Positions 2,941 to 57,564 of a DNA stretch of 64,000 nucleotides are shown in pieces. Under the pieces are notes generated by a model that was given only the letters and a program-made list of their open reading frames with translations, did no database searches and was not told the origin of the DNA. Both the position numbers and the translations under genes were made by a program. The first letter of the stretch is position 1. Every line of letters starts with the position of its first letter. Source of the DNA: a phage; the sequence record OZ335964.1; one strand, 5' to 3'.

Positions 2941-4353
2941 TTAGAAAGTCATGTTATTTGCTAGCTCGTCGAGTTTTTCTCGTTTCTCGGCTTGCTGTGC
3001 GCTTTGTGGTTTAACTTGTGCATTCTCCTGATCTGCGATCTGGTTTGGAACTTCATACCAACGCTGATTTCCTTTTTTCACACCAACGTTAAACCGTGAA
3101 TAGTAGTTCTTATCGCCGTAACGAGACTTGATCTGCTTCATGAGTTGAACGCCCATTTTAGCAAGGTCTTCGGTTTCGATAACACCCAACATAAAATCGG
3201 CTGTAGCCGGAAGACCTGCTGATTCAGCGGTATCACTCATGTTAAGGTCTGACGCATCCCAACCCGCGCGGGTAGTCTGTGCCGCAGTCCAACCAACAAC
3301 ATCCCACTTAACAAAAAAACCTCGCAGTTCTTCCGCAATCGCCTTAACTAGTGTGTAACTATTTTCAGAGTATACACGCAAGCGAGACGATGCGCAAATC
3401 CCCAGATAGTCAACAATCACAACATCAGGTTTAAACTGTTTCTTGAGTCGCAATTCATTCATTAACGCCTCAAAGTGATTGGAGTTCGCGCCACCAGTCG
3501 GATACTGCTTGATCATCAATTTTCCAACCGGACGATCTCCGATCTTCTTATTCTTAACACGCTTCATACGTGCGGAATATTCCGCAAAAGAAACATTACC
3601 ATTATCCAATTCATCTAATGTAATGTCAAGCAAGTTTGCGTCAATACGTTTGGCTACGACATGCTCTGCCATCTCCATTGAGATATACAATACATCATAA
3701 CCACATTCCATATAATCCGCAGCAAGAGAACACAATCCAAGCGATTTACCAACATTTACACCAGCAAGCAACACATTTAGCGTTTTTCTTTCCGCCCCTC
3801 CTTTCGTGATTTTATTCAACATCGGCAGCTTAAACGGGATCTTATTCGCTTTAGTCTGATATAGCAAGAATCGTTTTTCAAAGTCATTAAACCAGTCATG
3901 ACCTACATCAGAATCAAACGTAATGGATAGTGCTTCCTGCATGATCTCAGGAATAGCTCCCTCACCCGGCAATTTCTTATTCTGTTTCTCTTTTGGTAGT
4001 TGTGCGTTCGCTTGAATCTCTAGCGCCCGTGACATTGCATTGTACATAGCGCGGTCGCGGATAAATTTTTCGGTTTCCTTCATTAACCAATCAAGGTCTT
4101 CCGGTGTATTCTCCAGCGAATCGAGAAGAGTTTTAGCCCCTTCATATGTTGTCTGATTGCCTCTCTCCTTGTCTAAAGCAATCTGTAATGCAGTTGGCGT
4201 AGGAATGTTGGAATATTCGTCTACGTGCTTTTTAATCAGCTTATAAATCAGTTTTTCTTCGTCTTCGGTGAAGTAGTCCGCTTTAAGATGAGGCCATACA
4301 TTCGTAAAGAATGCGCCATTGTAAATCAACTGTGAAAAGATAGTTTTAATCAT
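2941..4353 (-). CDS. 41: replicative DNA helicase gp41 (DnaB-like)
   Basis: 470 aa; Walker A LLAGVNVGKSLGLCS; strong collinear similarity to recalled T4 gp41 (e.g. ...QYPTGGA..., ...WTAAQ..., ...IKSRYGDKN...). Confidence 0.92.
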   Translation of the reverse strand: MIKTIFSQLIYNGAFFTNVWPHLKADYFTEDEEKLIYKLIKKHVDEYSNIPTPTALQIALDKERGNQTTYEGAKTLLDSLENTPEDLDWLMKETEKFIRDRAMYNAMSRALEIQANAQLPKEKQNKKLPGEGAIPEIMQEALSITFDSDVGHDWFNDFEKRFLLYQTKANKIPFKLPMLNKITKGGAERKTLNVLLAGVNVGKSLGLCSLAADYMECGYDVLYISMEMAEHVVAKRIDANLLDITLDELDNGNVSFAEYSARMKRVKNKKIGDRPVGKLMIKQYPTGGANSNHFEALMNELRLKKQFKPDVVIVDYLGICASSRLRVYSENSYTLVKAIAEELRGFFVKWDVVGWTAAQTTRAGWDASDLNMSDTAESAGLPATADFMLGVIETEDLAKMGVQLMKQIKSRYGDKNYYSRFNVGVKKGNQRWYEVPNQIADQENAQVKPQSAQQAEKREKLDELANNMTF

Positions 4354-53971: not shown

Positions 53972-54562
53972 TTACTTTCTAAAAGCAGGGTGCATAGCTT
54001 TAATACCTTCCACCCGCTGACGATCCGCCGCCTGAATTGCAGGGCGAGGAACGATCAGTTGACCATCACGTTCAATGCTCATTGTTTTAAAGGGAAGAAT
54101 TGCAGTACACACCAGAGATTCATGCATATCATCGGTGTATGTTAACTCAAGTTCCCCCAATTGTGAACACCAACAACCATAAAAGTTAAAAGTGCACACA
54201 ATGTTACGGCGTTCGTTGTCCATCATGTGAACTTGAACGGCTTCCGGCATTGAATCCTTCCACGCAGTGGAGTTACCGTTATTGTAGTCTACTATAGAAA
54301 GCATCCATGTGTAAAGGTTTAGATAGCTTTCTAGATGTTCATCGACAATAAACCGAACGACCAACGGGTCAAACTCCACATGACTAGACGGATAATCAGC
54401 GACCGCCAAACCATATTGACCAGCAACTTGCTTAGTCGGTGGAATGGTTATAGCCGGAAGTGTAACACCTTGACAGTTTAAAGTAAAGCCTTTTGTTAGC
54501 TGTCCATCTGGAATATTGATCTGCCAGTTGCTAGGGTTAGCATAGTTAAAGAGATTAGACAT
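53972..54562 (-). CDS. 3: gp3-like tail completion/sheath stabiliser protein
   Basis: 196 aa ORF between genes 1 and 2, as T4 gene 3; by position and size. Confidence 0.5.
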   Translation of the reverse strand: MSNLFNYANPSNWQINIPDGQLTKGFTLNCQGVTLPAITIPPTKQVAGQYGLAVADYPSSHVEFDPLVVRFIVDEHLESYLNLYTWMLSIVDYNNGNSTAWKDSMPEAVQVHMMDNERRNIVCTFNFYGCWCSQLGELELTYTDDMHESLVCTAILPFKTMSIERDGQLIVPRPAIQAADRQRVEGIKAMHPAFRK

Positions 54563-54584
54563 TACTGATTCCTCAAATGAAAAT

Positions 54585-54592
54585 ATTTATTA
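54585..54592 (-). promoter_or_regulatory. late-promoter-like AATAAATA upstream of gene 3
   Basis: 7/8 match to TATAAATA on minus strand ~23 nt upstream of the gene 3 ATG in an AT-rich intergenic region. Confidence 0.35.
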
Positions 54593-54717
54593 ACAATTGT
54601 CGCTTCGCGACGTGCCGTAGGCACTGACTACTTTTTAACCGAAACAAATTTTTATTATTCTAAAGATCTTTCTTCGTTTTGGTTATGTTTTAACCAATAA
54701 CTATATTTTTATACAGT

Positions 54718-54725
54718 AATAAATA
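54718..54725 (+). promoter_or_regulatory. late-promoter-like AATAAATA upstream of plus-strand ORF
   Basis: 7/8 match to TATAAATA ~27 nt upstream of the ATG at 54752. Confidence 0.3.
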
Positions 54726-54751
54726 AAACGGGTACTATACGAGGACTTCTT

Positions 54752-55006
54752 ATGACAGAAGACATTTTGTTAAAACTCTATGATCGTTTGGATAACGAAT
54801 TAGCAACATTGCGGGGTGAAGTTCTCTATTTGTCTAAATGCAATACAGATCTGCTTAAGCAGATTGCAGAAAGGGATGATCAAATAAAATCCCTTTCAGG
54901 TGCATTACGTGATCGCGACAAGGCATTAGAGATTTTACAGCGTGTTACCAATAAGGAAGAATTAAAAGACTTCTTACATGGTTATGCTCATGCTATCGAT
55001 CTATAA
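54752..55006 (+). CDS. hypothetical coiled-coil protein (84 aa)
   Basis: Only plus-strand ORF in the early block with its own start, SD-like GAGGA and a following hairpin; convergent with the endonuclease-like gene. Confidence 0.4.
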   Translation: MTEDILLKLYDRLDNELATLRGEVLYLSKCNTDLLKQIAERDDQIKSLSGALRDRDKALEILQRVTNKEELKDFLHGYAHAIDL

Positions 55007-55009
55007 TAA

Positions 55010-55032
55010 AAAAGCCCGTCAATGACGGGCTT
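55010..55032 (-). terminator. terminator between convergent genes
   Basis: GCCCGUC-auu-GACGGGC followed by UUUUUUAUUAU on minus strand; weaker T-run on plus strand. Confidence 0.6.
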
Positions 55033-55036
55033 AATG

Positions 55037-56179
55037 TTAACTATTGATCATATCAATGACGTTTTGTAGCTCTGATATGGATAGCGTTTCTGTATATCCA
55101 TCGGGCATATCTTCTTTACTAACATAGAAACCTTTATACTTTTTCTTTATTGCACATTCCATAGAAAGAGCATCATCACCGTTATCGTATTTTTTATAAA
55201 ATGTCAACTCATGACGAAATATAGATTTTGAAGATTGGTTTTGTATTCTTTTTATTAATCTGTTGTTGGTTATACCAAATTTTATAGCAACCGCAACATC
55301 TTCTTTGTATAAAGTTTGTACATAAATGTATGCAGGTTTATTCCTCTTAAATCCATGATTGCTACACATAGGGCAACCGCTATTTTTTGATACGTAGTCT
55401 CCTAAGTTTGGCGTAAATTCATGTCCGCTACTACAACGCATTACCAATTTTGTTTTTAGCATTCCTCTATACTCACCGCCAACAAAATCAACAAATGTAT
55501 CACCTTTATCAATCGCCTTATCTGTTATTTCCTTTACTACTTGCTCAGTTGACTTCTTGTTTTTACCTGAACATAGTTTACATCTAGATCCATTAACTAA
55601 AAACGAGTGACCAGATGCAGTATATTCATGTCCATTAGGACATTTAACTAAGATATTTCTTTCATAAAAATCTTTATAATCAGACACATAGCCAATAACT
55701 TCGTGGTCTTTTTGGGCATTCCTCATCTCTGTTAGCAACTCTTCGCTATTCCAGCGTTTACCCTTAACGCAGAGACAACCATGACCTTGATAAAGATATA
55801 TAAATTTCTTAGTAAAGTTTTTGTTACAGTCAGGGCAGTGCATTAGTAATTCTGTCATTTGACCTGTATACCCTTTAGGAATATCGATCAATGTGTATTT
55901 TCCGCATATTGTCTTTAATGCATCATCTATTCTTTCTTTGGTCCAGCGTAAGCGACCAGTGCATTCATGACATTTTACACCCAGTCTAAGAGTATCTAAA
56001 CTAAATATAGTTGACGTATGTCCTTTATCACATTTTAACTTAAATCTAGTATCCTTTGCGTTGGTGTATTCTCCAACTAGACCATACCATTCATAACCAC
56101 ATGGGATATGTTCTTTTACCTTCTCTAGATATACACCGAACGGTCTAGGAACTGAATTAGGTTTTCTTTCTTTAGTCAT
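55037..56179 (-). CDS. zinc-ribbon-repeat protein with C-terminal T5orf172 (GIY-YIG-like) domain; putative free-standing endonuclease
   Basis: Four ~55-aa repeats each with G-H...C-x2-C (e.g. KCDKGHTS...KCHEC; KCPNGHEY...CKLC; RCSSGHEF...CPMC) then ...PAYIYVQTLYKEDVAVAIKFGITNNRLIKRIQ...; inserted between genes 3 and 2. Confidence 0.45.
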   Translation of the reverse strand: MTKERKPNSVPRPFGVYLEKVKEHIPCGYEWYGLVGEYTNAKDTRFKLKCDKGHTSTIFSLDTLRLGVKCHECTGRLRWTKERIDDALKTICGKYTLIDIPKGYTGQMTELLMHCPDCNKNFTKKFIYLYQGHGCLCVKGKRWNSEELLTEMRNAQKDHEVIGYVSDYKDFYERNILVKCPNGHEYTASGHSFLVNGSRCKLCSGKNKKSTEQVVKEITDKAIDKGDTFVDFVGGEYRGMLKTKLVMRCSSGHEFTPNLGDYVSKNSGCPMCSNHGFKRNKPAYIYVQTLYKEDVAVAIKFGITNNRLIKRIQNQSSKSIFRHELTFYKKYDNGDDALSMECAIKKKYKGFYVSKEDMPDGYTETLSISELQNVIDMINS

Positions 56180-56234
56180 ATTTTATATCCTGTAAATTAA
56201 AGCGCCGTCACCAGCGGCGCTATTTTTATAATCA

Positions 56235-57056
56235 TTAAAACAATTTCCACACCTTACGAGCATCATATTTCTTGTCTTTGCTCATAAACTGGTAGGTCGG
56301 AAGATACACGACCGTGCTCCAATCTTTTGGTGCGATCTCAATCAGTTTTGTTTGGATGTGTCCAGGCAAATATGCTTTGATCATGTGGTCTGCGCCTCTC
56401 ATACCTTTAACATCACTCCATTTAATTTTTAAACGAGTTTTATTACTAAGAGTAGGTGTACTCGCGTATTGTCGCAACAACGCTTCTAAGAACTGCTGGC
56501 GAGCTTTAGGTGGCGCATAGTGCAAGTTCAAACCTAGCATAATCTCGTTTCCCGCTTTAGATGTACCAAATCCTAGACAGATAATCAAGGGGTATCGGTC
56601 AAAGAATGGCAAAGAATCCCGATATTTTGGGTTATACGCATAAGTATAGATCCGTCCCACTTGTGGTTTTACTACCTGATGACCTTTTACACCCGCCTTG
56701 ATAGTCTTCATAAACCATTCTTGCGACTTCTCTTTAGGGCGACTCTTTGATACAGCACGCATAGACGCACGAAAATCATTAATCATCATCATTGCGCGTT
56801 GCTGCTTATTGAGACCCTTTGCGCCTTTCCCTTTTAGTTTTTCAACTTCTATTGCTGTTTTAATTTCGCTGGCATAACGAGACATACTTTTAGTGAAAGT
56901 TGCATAGGCTATTCCCTTAGAATCTGCAAATGCTTTAGCTGTCATGCCTTTGGCTTTTGCTTTCGCAAATTCTACACCCAATTCGACCCACTGTTTAGAC
57001 TTTCGTTTTTGGGGAGACGGCTTTTCGTCTTCTGTGATTATTTCAAATACGCTCAT
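56235..57056 (-). CDS. 2: gp2-like DNA end-protector protein
   Basis: 273 aa (T4 gp2 ~274 aa) immediately upstream of gene 4; assignment by synteny and size. Confidence 0.55.
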   Translation of the reverse strand: MSVFEIITEDEKPSPQKRKSKQWVELGVEFAKAKAKGMTAKAFADSKGIAYATFTKSMSRYASEIKTAIEVEKLKGKGAKGLNKQQRAMMMINDFRASMRAVSKSRPKEKSQEWFMKTIKAGVKGHQVVKPQVGRIYTYAYNPKYRDSLPFFDRYPLIICLGFGTSKAGNEIMLGLNLHYAPPKARQQFLEALLRQYASTPTLSNKTRLKIKWSDVKGMRGADHMIKAYLPGHIQTKLIEIAPKDWSTVVYLPTYQFMSKDKKYDARKVWKLF

Positions 57057-57067
57057 AATATTATCCT

Positions 57068-57541
57068 CTATTTGTTAAGCCCTTTAAAGCCAAATACTTT
57101 CTTTAATGCATGTTCGGTGATGATCTTAAACTCCATGTTATGCTTTTGGCATAATTTCACGGCAGCTAACCATTTTTCAGTATTTTTTGTGTACGTCCAT
57201 ACTTCATGCATATATCGTTGCTTTGTCTTTGCGGTCATTCTTTTTGGCTTTTCCGGTGGCCTTGTCTCTTTAGCTGGTTTAACTTCCCATAAATGCTCCT
57301 TGCCATCATCAAACTTAACGTAAAAATCCATAAAGTATCTGTGTCTTTTTCCGTCTGTTGATGACTCATAAGGAATTACTACGGTCTCAGATCCCCATTT
57401 TGCAACTCTAGGATTGCGGTCTAGCCACTGCATGATCCATCTTTCCCAGCTTGAACGGTATGTGATCTTACGTATATCCCCTTTATACTTTTCCTTATTC
57501 TCAGGAACATACTTACCCTTATAAGTGTTAGATCCTCCCAT
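57068..57541 (-). CDS. 4: gp4-like head completion protein
   Basis: 157 aa; divergent from gene 53 across a late-promoter region as in T4. Confidence 0.6.
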   Translation of the reverse strand: MGGSNTYKGKYVPENKEKYKGDIRKITYRSSWERWIMQWLDRNPRVAKWGSETVVIPYESSTDGKRHRYFMDFYVKFDDGKEHLWEVKPAKETRPPEKPKRMTAKTKQRYMHEVWTYTKNTEKWLAAVKLCQKHNMEFKIITEHALKKVFGFKGLNK

Positions 57542-57556
57542 TTTAGCACCCTTTAT

Positions 57557-57564
57557 TATAAATA
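57557..57564 (+). promoter_or_regulatory. late promoter TATAAATA for gene 53
   Basis: Exact consensus 32 nt upstream of the gene 53 ATG; a mirror-image GATAAATA on the minus strand (57573-57580) is 32 nt upstream of gene 4. Confidence 0.55.

Follow-up and report, generated by a model that had tools for sequence, protein, structure and literature searches.

The stretch analysed here is a 64,000-nucleotide (nt) segment of phage sequence record OZ335964.1 (hereafter the window), and its source is a Krischvirus, an RB49-like T4-type coliphage. Between genes gp3 and gp2, on the minus strand, it carries a gene for a protein of 380 amino acids (aa) in which an array of zinc-finger modules precedes a C-terminal nuclease domain. 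Judging from sequence comparisons and structural models, we consider it probable (about 0.8) that this gene, placed directly downstream of essential late gene 2, belongs among the free-standing homing endonuclease genes, as a member of the T5orf172 class of the GIY-YIG superfamily. It belongs to a known kind of mobile gene, of which it is an ordinary but clear example, and does not represent a new kind of system.

Site polymorphism and the exchanged segment of gene 2

Our comparison across the genus covered 64 Krischvirus records. Five of them carry the window's endonuclease gene, intact and at 99% aa identity or more, while another eleven, including Phi1, ECD7, FL37, FL38, pEJ01, ELT3, Cognac, Skers and G2248, carry a homologue of the same architecture that is 28% identical and ends at the same nucleotide. 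Among the 40 records listed, no fewer than 28 have the length expected of an empty site, and RB49, JK32, MIZ4 and kvi were verified as empty; most Krischvirus genomes, RB49 included, have an empty site. Presence/absence polymorphism at one site among close relatives, one of the marks by which intronless homing is recognized, is what this comparison reveals. An earlier note on this DNA, written from its letters alone, had proposed comparing the junction between genes 3 and 2 with related phages; empty-site alleles do exist there and are the majority.

The features on which this part of the argument depends are the following:

55037-56179, minus strand: putative free-standing homing endonuclease gene, 380 aa, JSE-type allele (open reading frame, ORF; PHROG 681 "endonuclease," E 1.1e-81)
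56180-56234, minus strand: spacer from the gp2 stop to the endonuclease start, which came with the insertion (absent from RB49)
56235-56739, minus strand: 3' two-thirds of gp2 (nt 318-822), putative donor-type co-conversion tract (55-88% identity to RB49)
56250-56304, minus strand: position equivalent to the putative recognition/cleavage region (gp2 nt 753-807, placed from the sister allele), with a variant and presumably uncleavable sequence here
55012-55032, strand not assigned: resident hairpin terminator, left boundary of the insertion (scan and folding z-scores)
56235-57056, minus strand: gp2, DNA end protector (Pfam/PHROGs)
53972-54562, minus strand: gp3 (Pfam/PHROGs)

The left edge of the insertion can be placed to the nucleotide. 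RB49 lacks the endonuclease gene and has the terminator and the neighboring 84-aa ORF, from which its gp2 stop is 30 bp away. The TTA at 55037-55039, which is the endonuclease stop in the window, is the gp2 stop in RB49 at the identical nucleotide position, so the insertion begins at a stop codon beside the resident terminator. At the other end, the 55-nt spacer contains a terminator-like hairpin at 56201-56221, which the terminator scan found on both strands, with a minimum free energy of -13.1 kcal/mol and a z-score of only -1.55; the depositors of the G37-3 genome annotate a terminator at the same position. A Shine-Dalgarno sequence, AGGA, stands 9 nt before the endonuclease ATG, and a search of 56180-56235 yielded this hairpin but no promoter-like site.

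The exchange does not stop at the gene itself. Over gp2 nt 318-822 (505 nt) the window is 55-88% identical to RB49, whereas outside this tract and the insertion it is 95-100% identical. The tract holds 148 nt differences from RB49, which amount to 72 synonymous and 33 non-synonymous codons. Because this part of gp2 diverges while the other flanks match, the exchanged block, as delimited by these alignments, is approximately 55037-56739 and consists of the endonuclease gene, the upstream hairpin spacer, and two-thirds of gene 2. The earlier note had taken the whole 1.7-kb gp3-gp2 interval as the inserted unit; its left part proves to be resident, and the block extends about 500 nt into gene 2, from 56235 to about 56739.

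An adjoining donor tract with variable endpoints, a further mark of intronless homing, is likewise present. The window's gp2 3' allele occurs only in the five endonuclease-positive records, the next best match being JK32, which is 80% identical and has an empty site. The edge of the tract falls at gp2 nt 261-318 in the window and at nt 339-347 in JSE, G37-3, PTE-Eco09, and AV108. Moreover, across 20-40 kb the backbone of the window is 96.0% identical to RB49 and 94.9% to JSE; the window is therefore nearer to RB49 than to JSE in its backbone, and the history of the block is discordant with it. The differing edges and this discordance point to separate events, which favors homing. As an observation in its own right, gene 2 of the JSE record (NC_012740) has its 5' end, at about 4185-4262 of the JSE locus, out of frame with respect to all other Krischvirus, and gp2 is annotated there at 747 nt compared with 822, probably because of an indel or a sequencing error in that record; gp2 of the window is intact.

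The sister allele supplies a second set of tracts. In carriers of the Phi1/ECD7 type, divergence from RB49 is confined to the final 70-85 nt of gp2 (nt ~741/753-819), and this patch is 100% identical in all nine ECD7-type endonuclease-positive records. Phages lacking the gene have shorter versions: the ECD7-type patch covers gp2 nt 753-795 in kvi and nt 753-807 in MIZ4 and MIZ5, compared with nt 753-819 plus the gene in ECD7. Repair of a break in the final ~70 nt of gp2 would be expected to leave endpoints nested in this way, and we regard MIZ4 and kvi as candidate "resistant empty" alleles, or as traces of a conversion that stayed incomplete or of an endonuclease gene since lost. Throughout the equivalent stretch, 56250-56304, the window differs from RB49. 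The genes of Phi1 (ORF130.1) and ECD7 (gp128) agree with that of the window in family, architecture, and insertion point, with a stop at the identical nucleotide by the terminator. They differ, besides the 28% aa identity, in length (343-344 aa versus 380 aa), in a start that overlaps the gp2 stop region by 8 nt where the window has its 55-nt hairpin spacer, and in a linked gp2 tract of ~70-85 nt versus ~500 nt.

Composition agrees with this picture. The guanine-plus-cytosine (GC) content of the 380-aa ORF is 0.340, compared with a mean of 0.402 +/- 0.017 for the window, and only 0.6% of equal-sized segments are as low; 54301-56300 is the sole stretch of the 64 kb with GC at or below 0.36 over 1 kb. 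The AT-richness relative to the flanks described in the earlier note is thus borne out, and the low GC of the endonuclease ORF suggests a foreign composition, again in favor of a mobile gene.

The surroundings contain other endonuclease genes. In AV108 an extra 177-aa homing endonuclease gene with HNH_3 and AP2 domains lies between gp3 and the 84-aa ORF (AV108 locus 1794-2327), which places two unrelated endonuclease genes within 2.2 kb and marks this neighborhood as a hotspot for homing endonuclease genes. Further paralogues of the present family are found elsewhere in RB49 (~139.4-140.4 kb) and other Krischvirus, and none within the 64-kb window. RefSeq labels the JSE and Phi1 genes simply as "endonuclease." Phage T5 (AY587007; T5 locus 1486-2283) was also seen to encode a homologue of 265 aa, which lies immediately before the tail gene pb2 on its upstream side and bears the annotation "RB49ORF238c-like."

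The 380-aa protein and its relatives

The DNA-binding part of the protein is composed of tandem modules, and the domain layout is as follows (all on the minus strand):

55352-56137: four tandem CapR/DUF4379-type zinc-finger modules, residues 15-276 (Pfam, ligand pattern, repeat alignment)
55946-56137: zinc-finger module R1
55742-55945: zinc-finger module R2
55550-55741: zinc-finger module R3
55352-55549: zinc-finger module R4
55040-55360: T5orf172-like (GIY-YIG superfamily) nuclease domain, residues 274-380 (profile-profile and fold comparison)

The Pfam family CapR matches the protein in four stretches (49.3 bits, cut-off 24.2; E 5.7e-13), and DUF4379, a treble-clef zinc finger, does so with 33.8 bits (cut-off 24.5; E 3.9e-8). 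Each of the four repeats is about 65 residues long and has four putative metal ligands. Three repeats share the arrangement C-x3-H...C-x2-C (C50/H54/C70/C73; C180/H184/C200/C203; C249/H253/C269/C272), and the second is a C-x2-C...C-x-C variant (C115/C118/C135/C137). Consequently, of the four G-H...CxxC repeats reported in the earlier note, the number is correct and the common ligand pattern is not. Its description of the repeats as unusual also needs revision, for these modules are the known CapR/DUF4379/DUF723 type, typical of the T5orf172 endonuclease class (PMC10448857, PMC8096241). At the nucleotide level, a degenerate repeat with a spacing of 207 nt connects R3 and R4. A full-length AlphaFold2 model gives each module a predicted local distance difference test score (pLDDT) of ~70-93 and an overall predicted template modeling score of 0.42, as for an extended multi-domain chain resembling beads on a string. 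Foldseek returned no match at E<=0.001 for this full-length model, the top ones being unrelated, and neither NCBIfam nor the PADLOC defence models produced a match.

Assignment of the C-terminal domain required more than a family search. Its 107 residues score 17.3 bits against Pfam T5orf172 (PF10544, GIY-YIG clan; cut-off 20; E 0.0069), which is below the gathering threshold, so indirect tests were needed. Within the family, PF10544 is matched at E<=0.01 by just 5 of 42 members, and a precomputed match exists for none of the 44 database homologues. By profile-profile alignment with hhalign, the domain matches TcgB/Gp130 of phage ICP1 with a probability of 98% (E 2.2e-13) over residues 295-391, and TcgB passes the T5orf172 cut-off in the same region with 21.2 bits. 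An AlphaFold model of this domain alone (pLDDT 95.4) follows the order beta-beta-alpha-beta-alpha-beta-alpha in its topology and displays the three-stranded beta-sheet/alpha-helix fold of the GIY-YIG type, with modest structural scores. Invariant across 40 homologues are Y286, K300-F-G-I-T304, R311, E341, and G361-Y-T-E-T365. Among them are the conserved residues of the GIY-YIG superfamily, namely the strand-1 tyrosine (Y286), the arginine (R311), and the glutamate (E341), whose catalytic roles we assign by position.

On these sequence and model comparisons, the C-terminal domain is best described as a T5orf172-type member of the GIY-YIG superfamily, and more narrowly as belonging to a "KFGITN...DGYTET" subgroup that falls below the Pfam cut-off. 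The T5orf172 assignment of the earlier note consequently stands on the alignment to TcgB and on the fold, and does not stand on the Pfam threshold. The canonical GIY-YIG family (PF01541) does not match the 380-aa protein and matches 1 of 42 relatives weakly, and the PDB, searched both by sequence and by profile, yielded no entry related to the nuclease domain. The active site is apparently intact, and nuclease activity is predicted. Many metagenomic homologues were seen to have a nearly identical nuclease domain (...SKFDHEIFYELTLQDGQKILELENKIKEAMKGKTSYISKEDMPDGYTETVAPSELSTIMYIVKSFEKELTA), although their full-length identity to the window's protein is only ~28-33%; this constancy may reflect shuffling of DNA-binding modules, as reported by Barth et al.

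T5orf172 homing endonuclease genes with repeated CapR/DUF723/DUF4379 fingers have been described by Netter et al. 2021 (PMC8096241) and Barth, Dunham & Seed 2023 (PMC10448857). The gene of the window resembles the ICP1 TcgB/Gp130 class in having N-terminal repeated zinc-finger modules followed by a C-terminal T5orf172-type nuclease, in its direct homology to tcgB (tblastn E 2e-12; hhalign 98%), and in its setting: variable presence, a position beside an essential gene at a genetic-exchange boundary, and other endonuclease classes nearby. It differs in its host, a T4-type Straboviridae coliphage, and in its ligands, since three of the four fingers are C/H/C/C where CapR has CxxC...CxC. T4 itself is without the T5orf172 class according to Barth et al. 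(PMC10448857); RB49, JSE, and Phi1 are named neither in the text of that paper nor in its supplements. Earlier comparisons of RB49 and phi1 called most phi1-unique genes ORFans, and ORF130.1 is unmentioned in their main text, that of Arbiol et al. 2010 (PMC2839356) included.

The T4 Seg proteins are free-standing GIY-YIG endonucleases for which intronless homing is established (PMC2988022; Belle et al. 2002, Liu et al. 2003). As with SegF, SegG, and SegB, the gene stands free among conserved genes of a T4-type phage, its product has a fold of the GIY-YIG superfamily, the cleavage site (a predicted one in the present case) lies in the neighboring conserved gene away from the insertion, and flanking markers are co-converted. 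The differences are that the activity of the Seg proteins is experimentally proven whereas here it is predicted, that a canonical GIY-YIG Pfam match is lacking here, and that the DNA-binding part is a tandem zinc-finger array. In the Seg proteins this part is of the I-TevI-like linker/NUMOD/helix-turn-helix (HTH) kind, and no NUMOD- or HTH-type family was reported for the 380-aa protein in the Pfam scan.

Proposed homing and the alternatives to it

According to the mechanism we propose, during co-infection with an endonuclease-less Krischvirus the four CapR-type modules would recognize an extended, asymmetric sequence in the rival's gene 2, close to its 3' end, and the C-terminal GIY-YIG-type domain would cut the gene there. 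The break would then be mended by T4-type recombination-dependent repair with the endonuclease-carrying genome as template, and the rival would acquire the endonuclease gene and, next to it, a stretch of donor gene 2 of variable length; this would be intronless homing with co-conversion. The carrier would be protected by the diverged 3' end of its own gene 2. Expression probably depends on attenuated read-through, in which the late transcript of gp4-gp2 would continue beyond the hairpin at 56201-56221 and translation would use the gene's own Shine-Dalgarno sequence. The earlier note's suggestion of a mobile, homing-endonuclease-like insertion is in this way retained for the 380-aa gene and abandoned for the interval as a unit.

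Several points weigh against homing. For the putative homing endonuclease genes of ICP1, it is experimentally unverified (PMC10448857). Loss of the endonuclease gene by recombination would account just as well for the nested tracts of MIZ4 and kvi. No partial tracts of the JSE type were seen in endonuclease-less genomes, so the target position had to be borrowed from the Phi1/ECD7-type allele. Finally, in the Shigella phage JK32 the entire gp2-gp4 module, at about 3001-4316 of the JK32 locus, shows about 76-78% identity to RB49, compared with 96-99.6% for 57B, 57A, gp1, gp3, the 84-aa ORF, and gp53; this exchange took place with no endonuclease gene at the site, which implies that a resident endonuclease is not strictly needed.

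The JK32 module also provides an argument for regarding the gene as passive cargo that moved, along with the 3' segment of gp2, through the usual recombination, homologous or illegitimate, among mosaic T4-type genomes, for instance mediated by hairpins or promoter-stem-loop (PeSL) elements, without any involvement of the endonuclease. Its edges are sharp, at the terminator by the gp2 stop and in the gp4/gp53 intergenic region, and the left one coincides with that of the window's block, where the conserved terminator hairpin could serve as a recombination linker; cassette shuffling at promoter-stem-loop elements is known from RB49 and phi1 (Arbiol et al., PMC2839356). A PeSL mobile regulatory cassette of that kind was nevertheless ruled out, because no sigma-70 promoter-like element adjoins the endonuclease gene, and a transposon-like element was ruled out as well, since neither flanking direct or inverted repeats nor a target-site duplication were found around it. 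Passive transfer must also contend with the presence of two very different endonuclease alleles and a nearby HNH gene clustered at one spot, and with divergent tracts that begin at the endonuclease gene, decay outward, and have nested endpoints, as expected for break repair near the 3' end of gp2. It explains the clustering and the nesting less well than homing does, and we consider it unlikely.

Another possibility is that the protein is a domesticated relative of such endonucleases which no longer homes. It would then act as a sequence-specific DNA-binding regulator of the CapR kind or serve, as ICP1 Odn does, to attack competitors or satellites. A chimeric phage nuclease reportedly gives sequence-specific immunity against subviral parasites; we take this nuclease to be ICP1 Odn, which presumably has a T5orf172 domain. 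CapR, which represses the capsid operon in the PLE satellite of Vibrio cholerae, derives from the T5orf172 endonuclease family by domestication as a DNA-binding protein, and its cysteine-dependent DNA binding has been shown experimentally (PMC8096241). Its zinc-finger module is homologous to those described here, Pfam PF21817 being named after it. However, CapR is a single module devoid of a nuclease domain, whereas the window's protein has four modules and an apparently intact nuclease domain with all its invariant residues kept. That the ORF is intact and at least 99% identical in five of five carriers fits selection and recent spread alike. The absence of the gene from most close relatives, which makes it dispensable, its tight linkage to a divergent flanking tract, and the lack of a PADLOC defence-model match all argue against domestication, which we judge quite improbable.

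As for the reading of the entire 1.7-kb interval, with its 84-aa ORF and terminator, as one mobile insertion, the whole interval is indeed extra relative to T4 and AT-rich throughout. Its left part is nonetheless essentially identical in all Krischvirus, including those with an empty site, and only 55037-56234 is variable. Within the genus this explanation is refuted, and overall we give it next to no weight; the ancestor of Krischvirus may nevertheless have acquired the 84-aa ORF long ago.

If homing by the 380-aa gene is the correct explanation, Krischvirus T4-type coliphages would join the phage lineages that carry T5orf172/CapR-type homing endonuclease genes. The locus would offer a cleanly resolved case in which such a gene marks a genetic-exchange boundary, rewriting two-thirds of the essential gp2, and would explain why genomes of therapeutic phages, JSE for one, show a local drop in identity and an "extra" gene. 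It would also be a tractable Escherichia coli system for homing of the T5orf172 class. More tentatively, and with considerable doubt about the whole of it, the gene-2 site might be treated as a natural allelic series, comprising the empty and sensitive RB49, the partial "resistant" kvi and MIZ4/5, and two 28%-identical endonucleases with their own gp2 alleles, that could enable a first demonstration of T5orf172 homing and of target reading by a CapR array. The two lineages may compete for a single site and, in doing so, spread functionally different gp2 C-terminal regions; 33 non-synonymous codon changes ride with the window's allele.

Resident sequence and neighboring genes

Over the 4.2 kb surrounding the locus, the window is 98.4-98.6% identical to G37-3, JSE, AV108, and PTE-Eco09. 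The minus-strand order is gp1 (deoxynucleoside monophosphate kinase), gp3, the interval, gp2, and gp4, followed by plus-strand genes 53 and 5; the flanking genes were identified with Pfam and PHROGs. Positions 54563-56234, which the earlier note had described as separating genes 3 and 2, correspond exactly to the gp3-gp2 interval, and in T4 the two genes are indeed adjacent, separated by 106 bp that contain no ORF. From left to right, the interval contains a 189-bp intergenic region, the 84-aa plus-strand ORF, a strong terminator, the 380-aa minus-strand ORF, and the 55-nt spacer with its weaker hairpin. The remaining features of the left part are:

54584-54591, minus strand: AATAAATA, candidate late-promoter variant, resident, 21 nt upstream of the gp3 start
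54718-54725, plus strand: AATAAATA, candidate late-promoter variant, resident, 26 nt upstream of the 84-aa ORF start (conserved in RB49, JK32, AV108)
54752-55006, plus strand: resident 84-aa ORF (phrog_17832; PHROG E 2.1e-57), outside the mobile element

The 84-aa ORF, the promoter-like motif before it, and a terminator between the convergent genes are all present where the earlier note had seen them; what has to be revised is their attribution to the insertion. The ORF, the intergenic region with its AATAAATA motifs, and the terminator occur in every Krischvirus examined, including the empty-site RB49, JK32, MIZ4, and kvi. At the protein level the ORF is 100% identical in RB49, Phi1, JSE, AV108, ECD7, and JK32; 59 Krischvirus records have it at 95% aa identity or more, and none was found outside the genus. 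Its DNA is 99.6% identical even in JK32 (2707-2961 of the JK32 locus), despite the gp2 and gp4 divergence of that phage. This distribution, judged by the refuting condition that the earlier note itself had set, shows the 84-aa ORF to be resident; it is specific to the genus and lies outside the element. The earlier note had called its product a coiled coil, for which a simple heptad test gave a weak signal.

The terminator at 55012-55032 is strong on the minus strand, where a 9-bp stem is followed by TTTTTATT. Its folding z-scores are -5.5 and -4.6 on the two strands, and it is the same in RB49, Phi1, JSE, and JK32 except for one loop nucleotide.

The motif AATAAATA occurs twice in the 64 kb, compared with 8.35 occurrences expected by chance, and both copies lie in the intergenic region between gp3 and the 84-aa ORF, on opposite strands and upstream of the two divergent starts, which suggests a divergent pair of variant late promoters. 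The exact T4 late promoter TATAAATA was found 3 times in the 64 kb against 6 expected, one copy being upstream of gene 53 at 57557-57564. Because no exact TATAAATA occurs at the endonuclease locus, the case for a late promoter ahead of the 84-aa ORF has to be made from the AATAAATA variant.

Among the neighboring genes, gp4 (head completion/closure; 57068-57541, minus strand) matches the Pfam Tn7 TnsA-like endonuclease N-terminal domain with an E-value of 4e-21.

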